A stretch of 63,392 bases of DNA, the filler included, from Dimargaris cristalligena (taxonomy: Eukaryota), in NCBI GenBank assembly GCA_003614675.1. It is 4 parts of 4 records of this genome, joined end to end, with 100 filler letters (N's around TTAATTAATTAA, not from the genome) between each part and the next. Parts side by side here need not be neighbours in the genome. Positions count along the whole stretch, not along the records: positions 47,646 to 63,392 come from ML002875.1; 3 more parts are not named here. The stretch is one strand, 5' to 3'. Each line of letters starts with the position of its first letter. Position 1 is the stretch's first letter. The notes under the pieces were generated by a model. The model saw only the letters and a list, made by a program, of their open reading frames with translations. It made no database searches and had not been told where the DNA came from. The position numbers were made by a program, and so were the translations under genes. Positions 3,817-49,106 of this stretch are shown in pieces.

Positions 3817-5974
3817 ATGCGTTTGTTTGGGTTGTCCCGAATATGGGCATTTTTTCTGTACGTCGGTTTGTTTTTCGCATGGTATCCCCCAGCCGGAGCC
3901 GACATCACGATACGGAAGGGCGACATCAAGCTTCATGGCAAGCTGTGGGACTTCTTCGGCGACATTCATGTCGAAAATTACCGCCTCACCGGCCTGGTGA
4001 TTAAAGCCGCCGTGCGCCGCGGCTGTAAGCTCACCCCACCTACCAAAAAATACAAGGTCGGGCTGAACAAATTCGAAAGCACCATTATTTTTGTGTATTT
4101 CCGAACTGCCAAGTACACCGACTGTTTCTCATTTACCGACCTGATCAAACAAATGGAAGAGTACCGGTACGAACTCGTTCAGTTGGGCTACCCCACTCCG
4201 CAATTGGCCATTTTTAATTGTCGGCGGAGTTTTCCCGAACCCTTTGGCTCGCCGGACATGGAAAGTCCTGATGATTACTTTGATTACAAGCCCAAACAGT
4301 TTCATATCGCTTTGGTGGGATCCGACACCGGCCAGGAACTTAATTCCCTACTCACCAGCAGTGGTCGGTTAGTAAGAGCGGAAGTTGTTCAAGGTAAGTC
4401 ATACACACACACACATATATATATATATATCCCCGGTATTTTTTTCATCTTTACTCAGGGAGAAGGGGGTCGACACCTTCAGCCCAAGCGACTCTGAGAT
4501 CTTCGCGTGGGCTTCACCAAGTAGTCTCATTCTGGGGGTTGACCATCACCTACCCCGCTTCTTAATCCTTGGGCTCAAATGTCTGAATTGTTCTTGGGGG
4601 GGCGTTCTATTCTAGGGGGTTTTCTATTTAAAGCATTTGGTCACAGTGCCTAATTTATGTTATGTTTCCCCGCCCGCCATTTTATCAACGCTGCATGCTC
4701 TAGATCGGGGACCTTGGAATACACTCCTCAAATCGCCCGGTTGGCTTATTTTGAAATCGGTTACCTACGCGGCCCATTCCTCCATCACCGCCTACGGTCT
4801 GTTCCAGCTCTATCTCTTGTACCAAATACAGGGATTTAAAATTAATATCCGGGTCGCAGTGATTTCCATTTCGTTATTCTACCTCCTGGTCAATGGCATT
4901 CTCCAGTACGGCGAGTTGCAGCGGAACGTGGGCTACATTACCATTTACATTTCGTGGGGTATCGGTAGTATTGCCTTTAACCTGGTCATCATTGTTTGGA
5001 TCCGGGCTTTCCAAAAAATCGAAAGGGGCAGCTTTACCCATATCATGTATGTTGTCATTGTCTGCAATGTCTCCTACATGGCCTTTATGTGTGTCGTGTT
5101 TATCACGTCCATGAAATCTCACGAATCGTGGATTATGTCAGCCACCCAAAATTGGTCATTTGTCCAACCGCTGCTGTGTGGTGTCGAGGGGATGTTCCTG
5201 CTATACTTTGGCGCAAGGGCGTACCTGGTCACCCGTGACATCCGGGACACCACCGGGACCTACAATGCTTTTCATCGCATGACCGTTCTGTGCTTTTTGG
5301 CGTTCATCGGGTATACCTTTCAAGCCGTGGCGTACATTTTGATGAATAACAACGGGCGGGATTATGTCAGCCATTATATACTCAAGTACATCTGCTACCG
5401 GCTGTCCACCATCATCTTGTACGGCAGTTTACTCTGGGTGTTGCGGCTCGACGGTTCCCTGAGTGAGATGCACTGGGATGGCGATGATTCCGAATATTAC
5501 GACGGTAACGATACCCCTAATACCCACTCCCCCCCCTTGTCTACCCGGCGCGACAGCGCCCTATACCACCCCCATACCGCCGTGGCCATGCCTCCTTCGT
5601 CAGGTCCCGCTACCGCGACCGCCTCCCTGGAAGTGCGGGGCAACGGACTCGCTGGTTCGTGCCCTGATTCCCCGCTCGAACCCCCAATAGTACACTACCC
5701 TAAAACGCGCCCGGGGATTGTTGCCCATCTGGGGGATTGGCAGGCTCACCACCTTGACCCGGTCGAGTCCCTTCGGTTACCCCAATTCCCGCCCCCGACG
5801 AAACCCGCGGACCGGGACAGTCAACTCACCCACTGCCCCCCCGAACCCGTTTGTCATACGTGGCCTAATTCGCCCAAGGAACAGGCCCGCCACTTACCCA
5901 TGTCGAGCGACCCCTATATGGCCCCCTTGACCGATTTTTTCACTCCCACGCATCGAAACCATACTCTACATTGA
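3817..5974 (+). CDS. Signal peptide + ectodomain (PA-like) + 7TM receptor-like protein, paralog A; exons 3817-4393 and 4704-5974
   Basis: ATG at 3817 begins a hydrophobic leader. Intron GTAAGT(4394)...CCTAAT...TAG(4703) joins the two ORFs in frame to give QDRGPWN, matching QDPGPWN in the intronless paralog at 10133. Shared motifs WDFFGD, GCK, STIIFVxFRxAK, SFTxLIKQ, LGYP; about 7 hydrophobic helices; Pro-rich tail. Confidence 0.85.
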
Positions 5975-10132: not shown

Positions 10133-11950
10133 ATGCAACTCAAACTGAATTTTCGGTTACTGCTGGGTCTCGTGGTAACCCTAGCCCTTCTCCAGTCCGG
10201 CCGGGGTGACATCGGCCTGGACTACGACGGAACTTTCAAGATGGCCAAAATGTGGGATTTCTTCGGTGATACCAACGTCAAATACTACGAGTACGAGGGC
10301 CCCGTATTTCGCCTCCAATTTCGCCACGGCTGTAAAGTGATCATGCCCTCGGCCAAGTGGGAGCTGGACGAGGTCGGCACTTGGTTCTCCACGATTATTT
10401 TCGTCCATTTCCGGGAAGCGAAGCACTACGGCTGTATGTCCTTCACCCAACTGATTAAACAACTCCCTCCGGTGATGAGTGCCCTAGTCGAATTGGGGTA
10501 TCCGCCGGTCAAGCTGGCCCTGTTTGGCAGTAGGGTGGACGAAATAAAGTCGTTTGGCCCACCGGAAGTGGAGTTACCCGACAATTACTTTTGGCACCGC
10601 CCCCCGGGGTTGAATCTCGCCCTGATTGGGCGGGACACTGCGATTTGGATTAACCACCGGTTCCTGAGCGGGGGTAATTCGACCATCTTGGGTAGAGCCA
10701 CCCAAGATCCGGGTCCCTGGAACCGTATGATTCACCAACCCGCCTGGGAATTTTTGCGGGCCTTTACGTACATTACCCACGGTATCGCCGCCTCCTACGC
10801 TTGTTACCAGTTGGTCATAACGCTGTATCGGTGCCGGGGCCGCCCCAACGTGACCGCCGCCATCTTTCTCCTGGCCATGTATTATCTCATCGTCAACGCC
10901 GTCTGCCAGTACGGGGACCTCCAGTCAAACGGCGGCTACACGGCCATCTTCATTTCGTGGTCCACCAACAGCATGGCGTTTAGTCTTATGGTATTCCTGT
11001 GGGTCAAAACCATGCACTATTTGGAAATCAGTCGTTTCTTCAATTTCGTATACGTCATATCAGCCCTCAATGCGGTGAATTGGTCTATCCTGTCGATTCT
11101 CATGAGCGCGGCCATCATGACCAGCGACCGCCACCATTACCGCAATGCCACCAAGTTACTCTTGTACGTCCAACCGGTCATCATTATCCTGCAGGGTGGT
11201 TACATTTTCTACTACGGGTTCCGGTTTCTGCGCCTCCTCAAGAACAAACCCCCCAAGGACCCGACCGTCCGGCGCATCCAGTGGTTCACATACATTAGTT
11301 ATTTTGCCTTTGTGGGCTACATGTTCCTCTCGTTGGCCTCCATTCTCATGTGCCAGTACCGCGAAGATGACATCAATACGTACATTGCCCGCAACGTTTG
11401 TTACAAAGTCGCCTCCCTGCTATGCTACGGAGGTATTTTCTGGATGCTCCGGGCCCACCAGGCCGTGGGCAATATTAAGGTATTCGCCACGAATATTCTG
11501 ACCGACCTTTACAGTGGCTTAGGCAGGGGCGTAAGAGGAAGAGGTGGAGGGCTAGGCGGGGGTCGAAGGGGAGGGGGCGGTCGTGGCCCTCCCCGGGCGT
11601 ATAAGCATCATCATCTAGACTATACGCACCGGAATAGTTTGGGCCTGGAAACGATGGCCGGGTTTCCCGGGTCGTCCCCCACGGGCATGACCTCCGATTC
11701 CGGGGCCACGGCCACGGCCGTGGACGGTTCTTACCTGAATGCGTCCCGTACTTTCCCCGGTCCCAGTGGGATTAGTGGAATGGGCGGCGGCGGAGGGGGA
11801 GGGTACCACGTGGGATTCGGCGACTCCCCCGGGTTTATCCTCAACCCTTCGGCTGGCCCTATTCCACCAACTACCATTATTGGTGGTTTGTCAACTATTC
11901 CCGCCCATAAAACGACCTCCCCGTCGAACTTTCGAATGCAAATACCCTAG
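10133..11950 (+). CDS. Signal peptide + ectodomain (PA-like) + 7TM receptor-like protein, paralog B (intronless, 605 aa)
   Basis: Single long ORF with signal peptide MQLKLNFRLLLGLVVTLALLQSGRG, a ~170-aa ectodomain, 7 hydrophobic segments and a Gly-rich tail; colinear similarity to the 3817-5974 gene. Confidence 0.88.
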   Translation: MQLKLNFRLLLGLVVTLALLQSGRGDIGLDYDGTFKMAKMWDFFGDTNVKYYEYEGPVFRLQFRHGCKVIMPSAKWELDEVGTWFSTIIFVHFREAKHYGCMSFTQLIKQLPPVMSALVELGYPPVKLALFGSRVDEIKSFGPPEVELPDNYFWHRPPGLNLALIGRDTAIWINHRFLSGGNSTILGRATQDPGPWNRMIHQPAWEFLRAFTYITHGIAASYACYQLVITLYRCRGRPNVTAAIFLLAMYYLIVNAVCQYGDLQSNGGYTAIFISWSTNSMAFSLMVFLWVKTMHYLEISRFFNFVYVISALNAVNWSILSILMSAAIMTSDRHHYRNATKLLLYVQPVIIILQGGYIFYYGFRFLRLLKNKPPKDPTVRRIQWFTYISYFAFVGYMFLSLASILMCQYREDDINTYIARNVCYKVASLLCYGGIFWMLRAHQAVGNIKVFATNILTDLYSGLGRGVRGRGGGLGGGRRGGGGRGPPRAYKHHHLDYTHRNSLGLETMAGFPGSSPTGMTSDSGATATAVDGSYLNASRTFPGPSGISGMGGGGGGGYHVGFGDSPGFILNPSAGPIPPTTIIGGLSTIPAHKTTSPSNFRMQIP

Positions 11951-18639: not shown

Positions 18640-20516
18640 TTAAACGCGGAACCGACACGTCCCCAGTGCTGACCAAGTTTTCACCTTGGGTAAATCCCAG
18701 CCATTGAGGGACTCCACCATATCGCTCACTTTGGCAAACTCGTTCATGGGCGCCGATGTGAGCGTGATGAAGCTGTTACCTGGCATGATGACCCGGTACG
18801 ACTGGCGCGTGACCAGATCCATGTAATCGCTATGTCCTAAGGCTATTTTCTTCATCGTCACACAGCACGACTTGCGCATAGATTCGTCCTTGGTAATGCG
18901 TTTGGCCAATTCGACCACCAAATAAGCACTGAGGCGACTTTCGGCCCCGAAAATATCAATGAGGTTTTTGGTTTGGTAGAGTTGGGCGTAGACTTCGTAG
19001 TCCTGTTTGCGAGAAGCTAGGGCCTTGATGTGGAGTTCCCAGATGTCTGATAGGGGGCGGATGTCAGGCCAATGATGTAGCATACCATTGACGATAAGGA
19101 CAATTAAATATAGGGCGATTCGGATGAGTTAGCCAAGTCGACCATAGGTCCGTTTTTTTTTTGTTTTTTTGGATTACGTCAAAGGTCCCGAACATCAGCA
19201 TTGCAATGGCCCCCGAAAACCAGGCGAAAAAAAAATCCTACACACTTACCTTGAACTGATTGCTTGAACATGTTCCGCACCTCTTCCCCCCAACTGCTCA
19301 ACTCCGGGGGGGCCTCACTATCCTGCGCCCCTAATTCGTTGAACACCATAGTTTCGGCCACCGTCACGAGCCACGCCGTTTCGGGGAAACTCACTTTCAG
19401 TATGGTCGTGAACTGGCGAATAAACATATCCCGCCCGGGCCGGACCGCCTTCCAAAGCTTGGTGGACAATTTACCATTGATGAATAAATTGACGGCCTGG
19501 TTAGTCGCTACGGTGGTTTGTCCGGCGTAGGTGGGGTAATAACTGCTCAGTTTGGTGAACATGTTTTGGTTGACCCGCTCAAACGTATCGAAAAAGGTTT
19601 GGATACTGCCGTCGCAGAAGGACAGCAGGTCGTGGTCAATTTTGGAAAACGTGGGGATGCCCTGGCTTTTAATGGGGGCAATGTAGGCCGTGTAGTTCAG
19701 GTCAATTTGGTGCATAAGGTCCACAATGGTAATTTGGCCTAGTAACGTTGAATTCAAGAGAAAAAAAGCCGAGAATAAGGGGGAGGAATACGTAGAAGTG
19801 TGCCGCATAGGGTGGCTGAGTAAATTGGGTGGCCAAAGTGGAGTCTGTGAATCGCTCCCGGTTGGTTGTCCTCATTGGGCATTATGGTAGAGTTGAACAG
19901 GGCTTATTTTTAAAATGATAATGATAAATATATACTACATACCTTTCTCGAAACGCTCATTGACCTCACTGTCACATTTCCGTCCACCAATTTCAAAGAG
20001 TTTCCAGCCCTGGTTGGGGTCATCGATATTGCATGGGCTAAATCCCAGTCTATTATCTAATTCGTTCTCGCCTACCCGGGCCAAGCACATCGTTGCACCG
20101 ACGCTATGGATAAGATATACACTGGGCCCCACCCGAATCCAGTTAAAATTGCTCGATTCTTTGGGCGAGCAGTCAAACAACGATAAGGCCGTGTCCGGGT
20201 CCGTTACTGACGATGAATCAGTGAATCCCACGCATTTGTCAAGCACTTGTAACTTTGAAATGACATTACTGGTGGTCGCATCGACCTGTGGGTCAAGGGC
20301 CGTAAATATCCGAATAGTTAAATTGTCCATGGTGAACGGGGAAAGCTCAACAGCACTAGACACTGCGGCATTTTTGTCAACCAAAGCAAGTGCCCGTTTT
20401 TGGGGGTCTTGGATAGAAAATGAAATAGGGAACCCCGTGACCGTCTCGCCTTGCGCAGATAAGGCTAGTCCAAGGAGGGCCATAACCGCTCCGACTATTG
20501 ACGTTTTGACCAGCAT
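18640..20516 (-). CDS. Secreted protein with N-terminal ricin-B-like (beta-trefoil) lectin domain and ~300-aa alpha-helical C-terminal domain; exons 20516-19943, 19738-19250, 19046-18640 (489 aa)
   Basis: Signal peptide; Cys pairs with (Q/N)xW-like motifs (NFNW, NQGW) and MCLA/KCVG. Phase-1 introns GTATGT...TAG and GTAAGT...CAG link three ORFs; exon lengths 574+489+407=1470 nt, divisible by 3. Confidence 0.75.
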
Positions 20517-21499: not shown

Positions 21500-22915
21500 T
21501 TAAGACTGCAGCATGACAACCCCGTGCGGGTTGACGACACCTAGGGGCCGGAGAAGTCGTTTAAAGTCAATGCTCATCTCACGCCGCCAGTCCATAGAAT
21601 CCCCCGACACGTCGATAAAATGTAGCATCTTATCTCCTGGAAAATGTACCAGCCCAAAATCCTTTTCATCCAAAAAATAGTCCGTTACTATAAGCGTGGT
21701 CTGATCGGGCCCCAGGGCAAGATAGTGCGGAGTGGCATATGCACCAATGGCGAGTTTGCCCATTAGTTTCAGGTTATTAGGGTCGGTGGTATCGAACATA
21801 TAAATATGCCCGCTGAAAGTGGCCGTCACCCACATGCGGGTTCCGGTATTGTTGACCACCAGGGTATGAAATCCCACATTGGTATCTTGGGCATCATAAA
21901 CTACTTTAAAGGTGGCATTTTGCGTGTCGATGAGGTACAGTTTTCCATCCCCCGTACTCGTGGCCACGGCACAGCCGGGACACGTTGTGGGCGATTTCAG
22001 AAACACAACATCCATGATGCCCCCGTGGAGTTGGGGGGTTAGCACCAGTGTGGCGCGAATGCGACGGCTCCCCAAATCCCAGATACGGACGGTATTACCC
22101 GCCTGTACACCGCGGGAGGGTCGGAGGGTGGTGTGTGGATCGACAAAATCGGAGGTGATCATAACGTCCAAGCTCTCCTCGATGGCAATACCGTGCGGGT
22201 GAAATCCAGTTGGTACATCGGCCTCCCGTTCGGGGTATTCGGCGACCAGTCGGAAATCTTGGTCGTATTCGACGACACGACCCCCGCGCCCGGTGGCCAC
22301 TCCGCCCATCATGGTGATAAGGAACCCCCCGTTCGCCAACGCGACGCAGGCATCCGCCGCCATACCCCGGGTCGGTCGGGATGTTTGTACGAGGCGGGGT
22401 TGACGGCGATTGGTGAGGTCGAAAAAGAAGTTGGGGTCCTGGTGCCGCCGAAAGGAGAGGAGACCACCGGCGAAAGCGGTACGACCATCACGGGAAACCC
22501 CGATATGGTGGGCTTCGTTGCCGCGGGTAGGGACCGGGACTAAATTGACCAAGCTAGGGGGACTACGGCTCGGTAAACTAGGGAGGGCAAACACTGCTAG
22601 AAAATCGCGGCTGGCTTTGTTGTCGGGACTGCACCAGACGTATAGGTAATACGCGGCCGCCGAGTCTGGCGGCTTCCCCGCCGGCGTTTGGGATTGTAGG
22701 ACGGACCGGAGAGCATAGGCAATCTGATCATCCCCAGCATCCGAAGCGCTTGAGATAAAATCGTCCCGGGTGTTTAGCTGGGAGGTTTGGTAGTGGGCGG
22801 GTTTTGGCTGCCACCCGTGGGGTTCGATTGACGCCGGGTCGACCGATACCGGGGAGGCCACAGCCATATGCCATAGCCCAATGGCTGATAGAAGAAATAT
22901 GGAAGAGGTGAACAT
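21500..22915 (-). CDS. Secreted selenium-binding protein (SBP56)/methanethiol oxidase-like beta-propeller, intronless, 471 aa
   Basis: Signal peptide; motifs DFLAV, GNEAHHIG, GGFLITMMG, GRVVEYD, HPHGIA, MITSDF, GNTVRIWDL, PHYLAL, NPHG as in SBP56/MTO-family propellers. Confidence 0.8.
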   Translation of the reverse strand: MFTSSIFLLSAIGLWHMAVASPVSVDPASIEPHGWQPKPAHYQTSQLNTRDDFISSASDAGDDQIAYALRSVLQSQTPAGKPPDSAAAYYLYVWCSPDNKASRDFLAVFALPSLPSRSPPSLVNLVPVPTRGNEAHHIGVSRDGRTAFAGGLLSFRRHQDPNFFFDLTNRRQPRLVQTSRPTRGMAADACVALANGGFLITMMGGVATGRGGRVVEYDQDFRLVAEYPEREADVPTGFHPHGIAIEESLDVMITSDFVDPHTTLRPSRGVQAGNTVRIWDLGSRRIRATLVLTPQLHGGIMDVVFLKSPTTCPGCAVATSTGDGKLYLIDTQNATFKVVYDAQDTNVGFHTLVVNNTGTRMWVTATFSGHIYMFDTTDPNNLKLMGKLAIGAYATPHYLALGPDQTTLIVTDYFLDEKDFGLVHFPGDKMLHFIDVSGDSMDWRREMSIDFKRLLRPLGVVNPHGVVMLQS

Positions 22916-29395: not shown

Positions 29396-31390
29396 ATGCA
29401 ACCACTTTGTATAAACACACTCAGCCTAGTTGCCCTTGGGCTCAGCTTGAGCCCCAACCTGCAACTTGGTGTAGCTGCACCTTCACTGGGCAAATCCAGC
29501 CCCTCTATCCCAGAGGTCCCCTTTAATGGAGCTCTTGACAACACCGTACCATCAGCCCCCTCGAGTGATTTGTCACTCCCAATTAATGGCAAAGCAGAAA
29601 AAAATAATGGGTAGCTCTTTGTCGGACCATCTGAGCTCAATTCCCAGGGAGCTGCTTTCAGAAATTTTCAAACAAGCTCATAGTTACGACAACCAACTGG
29701 AACTATTTAGTATTTCCAAGTATATTGGGATTTTATTTTCCGGTTCTCCTGCTGAGAAGGTTAAGGTAGGTATTAAATATTATATCTGTAGGAGATTATA
29801 GTGGTCGTACTGAAATTTTTTACCTCAATACCTGCACCAAATTGTACGAGGGATAGCGGACTATGATGGCACGCAAAAATTTATCACTAGGCCAGCTTTG
29901 ATGTTTATTATCGCCAGAATCTCTATTTTATCGATACCAAGGACCCATCCCAGTCTGACTATTTCTCTTGTTTAATTACTCTAAAGGCCAATTCCATTAA
30001 CTACAACTGCTTCGCGGACAATGCCATGCTAATTTTATAATCACAGTGAATTTTTCCTTTTGCCATTTCCCTCGTATAATAGATAAGCTTCGAATCTGTC
30101 TGACAAGGCCTTAAGTATCTCGAGCGATATTTTGTCAACAGATATGAAACCGAGTATATGACTCCTGTCAGCGACATGCGGCAAGTATTACAAGGCTGGG
30201 ACGGGCTTGTGCACCACCAGATTGCAGTGTGTTTACGCTCCGTGACTATACCTCGATGTCACCAATTGCTAACCCTATATGAGCATGCTCCCATAATCAT
30301 CCAAAGAACTGATTGGTCATAGGCTGTCCCCGCCTATCATGCCCTGAAATATATCGGGGACCTCCCACTATTTCAAGAAATGGCCTGGCGGTTTATCAAT
30401 CCAGTGCATTTAGGAAAAATGGCTTTACGTCTGAACCTGCCCCTTGTGGCATTGGTAGATGATCTGCCCAATGGCAGTGATGTTGTCTCGGCGTTTTCAA
30501 TTCTCTCGGATAAAACAATTGAAGAAATTGGCAAGGAATTCATGGAATTCATGGAAGCAAGAGGGTATGAACTGAATTATCCGGCCGAATATATCGGAGG
30601 CGCCACCGATTTTGCCCTTCTGGATCCCGTACTGTAAGCTTGGCTTAATTTTCGAAGCGATGATGCCTTATTCATTGCTGCGGCTGAATTTGGCAGGGAA
30701 TTGATCCGTAATGTTTTTGGAATTGCCATGACCCGCCTGGTCTCTGGGGGCGGTTGGTTGACTTCAGTCAATTCATAGTCAAATTAAGAGAAATGCGCTC
30801 GAATCTACACTGGGGCCATCACCCTATAAAACCCAATGCTGAAAGTCAACTTGCTATTGTTCTGGCTGCTCTGAGTCGGGATACCAACCTTCTGGAGAAA
30901 TTAGGTAGCCCGTTTGATGGTGATGACACCACATCGCCTGAATCTTTAAGGAGAGAGAAGTTCTAGATGGCTCATATCATGCGTAAGTATAAGCTTTTCC
31001 GAAGTGCCCAATTCATCGAGGAAACTTTGGAATGTGGCTCATTGAATCTCGATATTGCAGATATCCAAATGTATGACCCATTATGAACATTTAGGTAGTT
31101 ATTTCCAGGGTCTACAGCTCACTGACAACGACGAAGCGGGGAAATTTCAAATGAGAGTGTCCGTTTTAAGTTCCGACATCACTGCAACCACTCAAGATTC
31201 TTTGGTCGACATAGATTCGGCGACGTTCGCTCCAGGCCACTGGAAATTTGATCGCTATCTGGCCGAGCCCAAATTTTACCAATATCTCCGACATGGTGCC
31301 TACAAACACACTTTGAAACAATCCAATTCGGCAGCCTCTATTGAAGAGCATGTCTCACTGGAATCTGATCAAATCCCGGATGATTTTTAA
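29396..31390 (+). pseudogene. Probable pseudogene of a lineage-specific secreted protein with an F-box-like motif
   Basis: Signal peptide from ATG 29396; frameshift near the A-run at ~29598 into LSSIPRELLSEIFKQ. In-frame stops at 30635 and 30964 are followed by coding-like sequence; further frameshifts near 30750 and 31060; intron donor GTAGGT at 29766. Confidence 0.6.
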
Positions 31391-47645: not shown

Positions 47646-48532
47646 TAAATGACTTTGCTTTATTGGAGGTTTTAAATTCTTTGTGGAACGGATTATCAGT
47701 CCCATTCCAGTGAAAGTCGCCACCAATATATTGCCAGTCGAGCTAGTCATCGGGTCAGCGAGAGCATAGCGAGGTGAGGGAAAGTACCCACATGCTGGTT
47801 ATTGTTCTCTCGAGTGATATTATGGCGATGGATAGGGGAGGACGATGGTGCGTAATCCTCCAGACATTTGGTGTGTATCCTCATCTCATATTACCCTCCG
47901 TTAAATAAGCGGGGATCCTTACTTTATGCTCTTCATAACAAAGCCCCATTTTCCTTTGACACATTGTTAAACAATAGAGGATGGGCCATTTAATTGGCGC
48001 TCATATTGGTTGCCGGGATACTGGTCTATTTTCCAGAGAATATGGTAGAGTGACTCTCCAACCTGCTCTTGGACATGGACAAAACCACCCACAGCTATAT
48101 ACGACTTCGGGTGAAATATAGATGTGACAGTCGAGCGGGAGTTGGTTTTTAACCACCGGGATTCTTTAGCAAATGAGGTTTTCGTATTTTCGCAGAATTG
48201 AACCGATCCCCTAAACAGTCTTTGTACTGGCGGAACGGCGGCAAAACGTCAAGCAGTAACGGGCTTGCTCGCCCCTTGCCTGTGGACATGGGAAGGCCGG
48301 CCCATGCAAGCGGGCAATTCGATAAGTTGAAAATATATAAGACCCGTGGCGACCGTCCTACTCCCACACCGGCATTTCACCAGTTAGAATTACATTTATT
48401 TCCCATTTAGCCATCGATATCCCACTACGTATAGCTCCATAGACTTCATTACCCGACTTAATAGTCTACTAGCTCCACTTCGAATACCCCATCCCCCACT
48501 CTCCCCCAAATTTTTCCTACCCCATTCTTTCC

Positions 48533-48778
48533 ATGCTACTCAACATGAACTTTTCCTTCGTTTTCGCCGTTTTACTCGCCATTATTGCCGTCGCTAGCCA
48601 AGTACATGGTGCACCAGTCTCTGGTTATGTTGAAAGTTTAGATAGCAATGGTTTTTCTGTGTTTAAAAAAGCACCCCCCGCCCCTAGATCCGGACTTCAA
48701 AAGGTTAAGGATTCCTTGGTGGGAGTTGCTAAAAAGGGTATTCATAAAATTGCAGGTGTTTTCGGTAAGAAGAAATAG
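48533..48778 (+). CDS. Small secreted cationic peptide precursor B (81 aa)
   Basis: Classic signal peptide ...FAVLLAIIAVASQVHG|AP, short propeptide, then GLQKVKDSLVGVAKKGIHKIAGVFGKKK; TATATAA at ~48334 upstream. Confidence 0.75.
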   Translation: MLLNMNFSFVFAVLLAIIAVASQVHGAPVSGYVESLDSNGFSVFKKAPPAPRSGLQKVKDSLVGVAKKGIHKIAGVFGKKK

Positions 48779-49106
48779 CTCTCCGGCGACCAACGTCCAA
48801 CATTCCTATATATTTTTAAATACACATCATTAGCATAGTATACACGAGTATTATTCAACTCCCGCGTCTCCACTACTTCGATATGTCACCTAAAATTTCT
48901 CTTGTATAGACGTTAATGCATTTAGTAGACATCAATATAGCACAACAAACTTATTCCTCCCCTTTATTAGCCTAAATTTTTCTTTAATATTGGACATGCC
49001 AGTCTGTTGATAATATTGTATAAATAACCGGTAGAATATTACATTTTATATGCCCATTCAAACCATTTTACAAGACTCCTATAACGCTTTGGTTATCCGA
49101 CATTAC

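Follow-up and report, generated by a model that had tools for sequence, protein, structure and literature searches.

A candidate family of secreted, cysteine-free cationic helical peptides in the mycoparasitic fungus Dimargaris cristalligena

A short intronless gene of Dimargaris cristalligena was found to encode a putative secreted precursor that ends in a lysine-rich amphipathic helix, and to belong to a group of paralogs in which this helix is under selection, its charge and amphipathicity being held while the sequence drifts. The gene lies in the window, by which is meant the whole stretch of DNA analysed (63,392 nucleotides of assembly GCA_003614675.1, in four parts separated by N gaps). 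At a probability of roughly one half, the loci represent a family confined to this lineage and subject to birth-and-death evolution, whose products are linear cationic helical peptides, secreted and free of Cys; that the secreted peptides bind and permeabilise anionic membranes of bacteria or of the host mould is given the same even odds. The wider proposal, that a linear cationic alpha-helical antimicrobial family evolved apart from the animal ones in an early-diverging mycoparasite for use against bacteria or the host mould, is put forward tentatively and falls somewhat short of even odds. If true, the animal-style single-helix design, scarcely described so far in fungi, would extend to them, in a mycoparasite of the Zoopagomycota lineage, and would supply candidate weapons for a parasitism that has no characterised effectors in the literature examined. 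Apart from candidalysin, which is derived from a polyprotein, the fungal antimicrobial peptides and toxins described in the cited portions of that literature have Cys-rich folds or are enzymes. The natural helices of 29-47 residues, which vary in hydrophobicity at constant moment, would be cheap to assay.

Gene structure and predicted precursor

The 81-codon open reading frame reads exactly as in the first-pass annotation, which had also described its translation, and contains no cysteine (Table 1). Its ATG at 48533 has a T at position -3, and the start common to the paralogs is Met5 (48545), which has an A at -3 and yields 77 residues. The hydrophobic N-terminus (best 10-residue Kyte-Doolittle mean 3.42, a heuristic measure) and a helix at this place in the structural model agree with the signal peptide that had been proposed, and the signal cut was presumably made where the -3/-1 rule (small residues at both positions) allows it. 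The translation carries KK at residues 45-46 and PR at 51-52, and ends in GKKK. An AlphaFold2 model from a six-sequence alignment placed helices at residues 7-25 and 54-77 with coil between them, at low confidence (mean pLDDT 60.6).

The C-terminal segment had been described as Cys-free, cationic and amphipathic, and the calculations bore this out. Its last 29 residues have a net charge of +7 and a periodicity that peaks at 97 degrees. Their hydrophobic moment is 0.37 when the entire tail is taken and 0.52 in the best 18-mer (p=0.015 and p=0.024, respectively, in shuffle tests). When 2.52 Mb of sequence was simulated by an order-3 Markov model trained on the window, 1 of its 3449 ORFs in the 60-125 aa range passed a filter for a signal plus a cationic amphipathic tail, whose thresholds were chosen after the family had been seen.

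Upstream of the gene, the profile of the family alignment, in which the window copy was included, covers 47656-48542. The TATA run was found in the C1201 relic too, and the C888 relic ends before the TATA position. Downstream, AATAAA stands at one aligned place in four of eight copies, where the window copy has AACAAA; local alignment scores of its 3' UTR were 20-32. A splice-donor-like G|GTAAGA occurs at 48764, with the GT at 48765. The gene that precedes in the window, beyond the N gap before the start of contig C668, encodes a CASP/Coy1-type golgin (CASP_C).

It had been expected that a gene of this size would be easily missed by annotation, and neither the 81-aa nor the 77-aa product had an exact match in a collection of 15 billion proteins. 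The same was true of all six intact family proteins, and two of eight other proteins tested from the window were present in that collection by exact match. The gene family is unannotated, and would show that annotation misses short intronless genes of this sort. A search for RNA runs listed none, which counts neither for nor against expression.

Table 1. Coordinates of the window gene, its paralogs and other features (window positions, or positions in the named contig or locus)
Feature	Position	Strand	Remarks
Upstream region common to family (promoter and 5' UTR)	47646..48544	+	starts at contig start after N gap
TATA-like box	48334..48340	+	~200 bp before start codon; aligned TATA run in 8/9 upstream regions
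Intronless ORF (window copy, intact), 81 aa (77 from Met5)	48533..48778	+	start and stop aligned with 5 other intact copies
Putative signal peptide	48533..48610	+	hydrophobic core; helix 7-25 in model; cut likely after V-H-G26
Variable, Pro-rich, disordered spacer, residues 27-52	48611..48688	+	pLDDT <50 at residues 27-35 and 37-46
Family motif P-[KR]-[ST]-x-x-[QE]-[KR] at helix start	48683..48703	+	7/7 uninterrupted copies
Cationic amphipathic helix S53-F77	48689..48763	+	periodicity, family profile moment, neutral-drift simulation
Basic tail G-K-K-K	48764..48775	+	lysines a family feature, glycine not
Probable 3' UTR	48779..48980	+	alignable among copies, weakly for window copy
C418 copy, intact, 80 aa	C418: 634-876		tail HKKK
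C888 copy, intact, 94 aa	C888: 8485-8769 (possible mosaic at L012:6486-6970)		tail HKKK
C1340 copy, intact, 95 aa	C1340: 4063-4350		tail GKKK
C818 copy, intact, 114 aa	C818: 11397-11741 (L014:6398-6742)		tail HIKK
C1569 copy, intact, 73 aa	C1569: 1224-1445		tail SKSK
C910 copy, broken	C910		one in-frame stop in spacer; tail GDK
C2205 copy, broken	C2205		~0.5 kb repeat inserted in helix; tail CKKK
Promoter-only relics	C778, end of C888, C1201		upstream DNA alone left, cut off by repeat
Integrase-like retrotransposon fragments	C1340 (L013:327-1995)		broken; identified by eye
Signal-like F-box ORF	C888 (L012:704-1153)	+	upstream of family copy
Look-alike intronless ORF, 80 aa	34800-35042	+	TATA run ~200 bp upstream
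Signal-like ORF overlapping an F-box-like frame	29396-29801	+	signal-like ORF at 29396
Lectin-like ORF	19935-20516	-	signal-bearing
SBP56-like ORF	21500-22915	-	signal-bearing; adjacent to lectin-like ORF
ORF of 98 aa	51654-51950	+	signal-like N-terminus; two Cys
Related-looking membrane-protein genes	3817-5974; 10133-11950	+	signal peptide, ectodomain, multi-helix membrane part

The paralog family and the constraint on its helix

The homologue search of the genome itself, performed with single family queries, identified at least 11 homologous loci, and the window gene is thus not a lone one: six copies are intact, two have broken coding regions, and three are promoter-only relics. The seven uninterrupted copies referred to below are the intact ones and C910; C2205 is interrupted within its helix. 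The loci have in common about 0.8 kb of upstream DNA with the TATA box, which part C2205 lacks, and the window copy has the C888 relic as its sister (support 100/100), the two being 87% identical over 571 bp. Global pairwise identities of about 0.6 lie at the shuffled baseline of 0.58, and homology was therefore assessed by local scores against shuffles, which gave z values of 17-30 for the window copy against the six other members. A weak genome match on C560 was rejected since it has no signal or helix ORF.

All seven uninterrupted copies have an N-terminal hydrophobic core (best 10-mer Kyte-Doolittle mean 2.8-3.6, by the same heuristic). The spacer varies widely in length and sequence, with 15-31% Pro and a net charge of -1 to +5, and is shrunk to about a dozen residues in C1569. 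The seven tails are free of Cys, carry +7 to +11 with 0-2 acidic residues, have a period of 96-102 degrees and best 18-mer moments of 0.45-0.59, and draw 0.75-1.0 of their basic residues from Lys. Lysines stand on either side of the hydrophobic face, near 100 and 240 degrees. The K:R ratio of eukaryotic helical defence peptides is likewise in favour of Lys, about 5:1 (PMC7494827, in part).

Copies share about 37% identity in the 24-residue helix core, whose hydrophobic moment is 0.40-0.46 in all seven. The column-mean hydrophobicity profile of the family peaks at 100 degrees (p=0.00025). When neutral drift to matching identity was simulated from a family member on a star tree under a simple model, the mean moment was 0.29, and 1 run of 6000 attained the observed mean; about 1% of runs attained the observed charge, and none of the 6000 attained moment and charge together. 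About 3% of runs were free of stops in all seven sequences (p about 0.03), so that the open-frame test in the core is weak alone. Upstream DNA showed 1.05 non-triplet indels per 100 aligned bp, from which about 2.5 would be expected per coding pair, and all seven coding regions are in frame from the start to the common stop, although gap counts are rough at such divergence. Tails measure 29, 36 or 47 residues, and in six of the seven the last Phe or Leu falls on the hydrophobic face (220-240 degrees); this argument for a preserved register depends on two indel events, of +7 and +18 residues.

Residue identity itself appears nearly free to change, because nucleotide identity is equal at the three codon positions (0.60, 0.59 and 0.58), pooled pN is 0.39 and pS 0.49, and omega, about 0.7 by counting, is indistinguishable from 1 (lnL -498.9 vs -499.4). 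Positive selection is not shown by these values. The CpG observed/expected ratio is 0.83 in the window upstream region and 0.83-0.86 over the window locus, vs 0.07-0.45 in the relics. The C418 copy is intact yet CpG-poor (0.10 in its coding region), and may be silenced.

Several features bear on how the loci have changed. The C888 copy is possibly a mosaic: its upstream DNA and signal are nearest those of C1340 (L013; 82%, score 58), and its tail and 3' UTR are nearest C2205 (L042), with scores of 55 and 195 vs 22 and 28, a pattern that suggests recombination between paralogs. The longest helix, in C818, derives from an internal 33-bp (11-residue) tandem duplication that is visible in the DNA. 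Under the wider proposal, diversification would have involved gene duplication, shuffling between paralogs, and extension of the helix with its register kept. Most family loci (L012-L015, L034, L042 and L071) are found no more than about 2 kb from an abundant repeat that is TA-rich and poor in CpG. A 70-bp stretch of this repeat matched about 40 places in the genome, and the repeat truncates or interrupts four of the five dead copies. The retrotransposon fragments on C1340 are about 2 kb from the family copy.

Searches outside the genome depend on words that query and target share, or on annotated proteins. The window protein (P0001) matched no Pfam family; weak matches of one of six members to Nsp2_AV and Conotoxin were rejected as compositional, as was sorting nexin-5 (E=1.3) in a PDB search that returned no relevant match and no antimicrobial family. 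One search for outside homologues gave two candidates, neither of which scored, and another with an alignment of five members gave 2427 candidates, none at E<=10. A 1421-aa repetitive protein, the sole match of a single query among 1.84 billion representatives, was rejected on inspection; Atlas searches gave no usable match, and none of 414 pattern matches in metagenome contigs was confirmed as a homologue. Orthologues in other Dimargaritales could be missed, because a conserved neighbouring enzyme, the phosphoesterase, shares just 55% identity with the closest named relative, which bears the label Dimargaris cristalligena; next come proteins of Dispira, Coemansia and Dimargaris xerosporica. 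That value between proteins of one label points to paralogy or to deep divergence within what is called one species. No description of such a helical family was found in the literature, mostly open-access papers considered in their main text and in part; the consulted text of a review of fungal antimicrobial effectors (PMC9438471) does not contain the word 'helical', and that of PMC8778642 contains neither 'antimicrobial' nor 'Dimargaris'.

Processing, proposed membrane action and alternative readings

The processing scheme of the first-pass annotation did not carry over to the family. The C-terminal Gly, taken there as an amidation signal, precedes the basic tail in only two of six intact copies, and PAM, the sole enzyme for such amides, is reported missing throughout fungi (PMC6529398, in part); the PF01082 search of the genome gave no matches, and its control was likewise silent. 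KK occurs in the spacer of one of seven copies and within the helix in six of seven, and is not a plausible cut site since cleavage in mid-helix would halve the helix. The PR read as a cleavage site recurs in no other copy (1/7), the rest having PK. A search for Kex2 had been suggested and a kexin gene is present in the genome; the enzyme usually cuts at KR or RR and less often at KK (PMC6339444, in part). KR or RR directly before the helix was found in none of the seven copies, RR occurring once, in the C1340 spacer, and the absence from 7/7 copies of a conserved kexin site that would release the helix counts against the proposed membrane action.

The motif at the start of the helix is probably its N-cap and possibly a cut site as well. 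An S/T-x-x-E/Q capping box is a helix N-cap, and the former reading is the better one because the predicted helix begins at residue 54. An ER-retrieval KKxx signal requires lysines at -3/-4 and was rejected for the basic tail, whose lysines are not so placed and which would be lumenal.

The term cytolytic was not upheld by hydrophobicity. On the Fauchere-Pliska scale the mean (H) ranges from -0.07 to 0.23 among the family tails, that of the window copy having 0.19, below melittin and mastoparan B (H/moment/charge 0.51/0.39/+6 and 0.56/0.40/+5; PMC8879275 Table 1). Without the end lysines the other six tails have H of 0.37, 0.29, 0.22, 0.09, -0.04 and 0.09, and that of the window copy reaches H 0.32 with a moment of 0.44. 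As the values of the window copy are near those of cecropin A (0.31/0.20/+7) and a magainin (0.42/0.52/+3; PMC8879275 Table 1), it resembles peptides selective for anionic membranes more closely than it does cytolysins. The alpha-core formula of PMC7494827 (as given in the part consulted), of which iteration 1 of 18 was applied, was matched by three of seven copies, the window copy included. Against lysis, mean hydrophobicity is below 0.1 in three of the seven tails (C818, C1569 and C910), with faces rich in Ala, Thr and Ser.

Under the preferred reading, the precursor would be secreted and lose its signal peptide, and the spacer would be kept as a disordered tail or be trimmed near the P-[KR] motif by some protease. 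The terminal lysines might be trimmed by a Kex1-type carboxypeptidase, and no amidation would take place. The tail would be unstructured in water, be drawn to anionic lipid surfaces, and there fold with lysines flanking a narrow hydrophobic face, so that the membrane would be permeabilised or depolarised in a carpet or toroidal manner, as by cecropin- and magainin-type peptides. A high charge coupled with only modest hydrophobicity fits anionic targets better than it fits a general cytolysin; the targets would be competing dung bacteria or host-mould membranes at parasite contact. The relatives of the neighbouring gene are Dimargaritales, haustorial mycoparasites of moulds that occur almost exclusively on dung (PMC9866270, in part), and a coprophilous mushroom maintains paralog families of antibacterial peptides (PMC6461984, in part).

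The low hydrophobicity of several tails would also suit a non-lytic, host-directed effector acting at the appressorium or haustorium, where the helix would bind host membranes, organelle lipids or polyanions or, in a variant of this reading, would carry the spacer into the host cell so that its physiology was altered without killing. Such a role, for which the biotrophic and haustorial habit of the lineage (PMC9866270, in part) and the helminth defence molecules as a precedent (PMC3708846, in part) speak, as do the proximity of copies to the abundant repeat and the position of the C888 copy downstream of a signal-bearing F-box gene, is nevertheless considered unlikely. The spacer, its would-be cargo, is not conserved and amounts to about a dozen residues in C1569, and physicochemical properties alone are kept, with no specific binding face.

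Walls of Mucorales contain anionic polymers, polyuronides and polyphosphate, and a rather improbable alternative is that the proteins form an amphipathic polycationic coat or adhesive for spores or aerial hyphae, or for attachment to these polymers of the host wall. A Pro-rich stalk with an amphipathic end would fit this role, as would the C818 helix, lengthened by an 11-residue internal repeat as in surface-binding helices, and Ustilago Rep1 offers a model in that amphipathic peptides derived from it form surface fibrils (PMC9769878, in part). The charge of +7 to +11 opposes self-assembly, however, Kex2-flanked repeats are absent, and rapid sequence change with frequent gene death fits conflict better than a structural role.

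That the product is a signalling peptide, secreted to act through its helix as the ligand of a receptor in the fungus itself or in the host, is given little credence: the motif at the helix N-terminus is conserved and a kexin is encoded in the genome, but a core about 37% identical, with tails of 29-47 residues and the face alone preserved, is unlike a lock-and-key ligand. The slightest chance is given to a family once functional whose window copy is silent, or is spliced at GT 48765 to another C-terminus, as might be suspected from the five dead loci among 11, the GT[AG]AG near its stop and its lack of the AATAAA that four of eight copies have, since its frame, TATA box and motif are intact, its CpG is retained as described above, and the donor-like motif, present in two of seven uninterrupted copies and absent from five with the stop position common, is not a family feature. 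An LEA-type or apolipoprotein-type helix, which carries balancing acidic residues, was rejected given the 0-2 acidic residues in the family tails.

Comparison with known systems and other features of the region

The family resembles linear helical antimicrobial peptides in the design of its sequence and is a member of no named family. Frog-type precursors carry an acidic propiece followed by a dibasic cut site. The layout of animal linear antimicrobial precursors (cecropin, magainin/dermaseptin), which the first-pass annotation had recognised in the window gene, was retained in part: the signal peptide, the spacer and the Cys-free, Lys-rich, Gly/Ala/Ser-containing helix stand, whereas the acidic propiece (the spacers range from -1 to +5), the conserved dibasic site and the conserved amidation Gly are wanting. 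Charge and moment are in the animal range and the genes are likewise multi-copy and fast-evolving; several copies are less hydrophobic, and there is no sequence match to the animal families. The likeness would be convergent at most.

Candidalysin (Ece1-III) of Candida albicans is likewise a ribosomal, secreted-type fungal amphipathic helix with basic C-terminal residues. It is released by Kex2/Kex1 from a polyprotein of eight peptides, each flanked by KR (PMC9852700, in part), whereas the family has one helix per precursor of 73-114 aa, with KR on neither side of it and with lysines all the way along its strongly polar face. The helminth defence molecules FhHDM-1 and Sm16, small secreted proteins with a C-terminal amphipathic helix, belong to an animal-parasite family with a conserved helix of 32-35 residues, are released by cathepsin L, and are immunomodulatory, being neither bactericidal nor cytotoxic (PMC3708846, in part); the likeness is in layout, with no homology shown, and they serve as the model for the non-lytic alternative. 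Copsin-type CS-alpha-beta defensins of Coprinopsis cinerea are secreted peptide paralogs in another dung fungus, made with a signal, a pro-region and a mature peptide that has 12 Cys and binds lipid II (PMC6461984, in part), unlike the single helix with 0 Cys in all six intact copies. KEX2-processed repeat proteins (alpha-pheromones, Rep1) are also secreted linear-peptide precursors, and a kexin gene is present here too; their repeated cores stand between KR, RR or KK (PMC6339444, in part), and the family has neither repeated cores nor KR or RR flanking a core.

A second ORF in the window, 13.5 kb away, passes the same filter as the family: its N-terminus is signal-like, its net charge is +14, and it ends in a short amphipathic helix with a moment of 0.49 and H 0.19. 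Compared with the family it gave no BLAST alignment, an HMM E-value of 29 and DNA z scores of at most 3.7 (17-30 for true members), and its product is absent from the protein collection. This look-alike hints that such genes are common in the genome. The 98-aa ORF 2.9 kb downstream of the window gene had no Pfam match and is absent from the protein collection, and the gene at 10133-11950, one of two related-looking membrane-protein genes, had no Pfam match.

The ORF upstream of the C888 copy combines its signal-like N-terminus with an F-box (Pfam E=1.8e-6), and the frame downstream of the signal-like ORF at 29396 is F-box-like by eye; secreted F-box proteins, if such they are, would be effector candidates. 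The two adjacent minus-strand ORFs of the window gave matches below the cut-off, a weak one to a ricin-type beta-trefoil lectin (E=5.5e-4) and one to SBP56 (E=2.4e-7).
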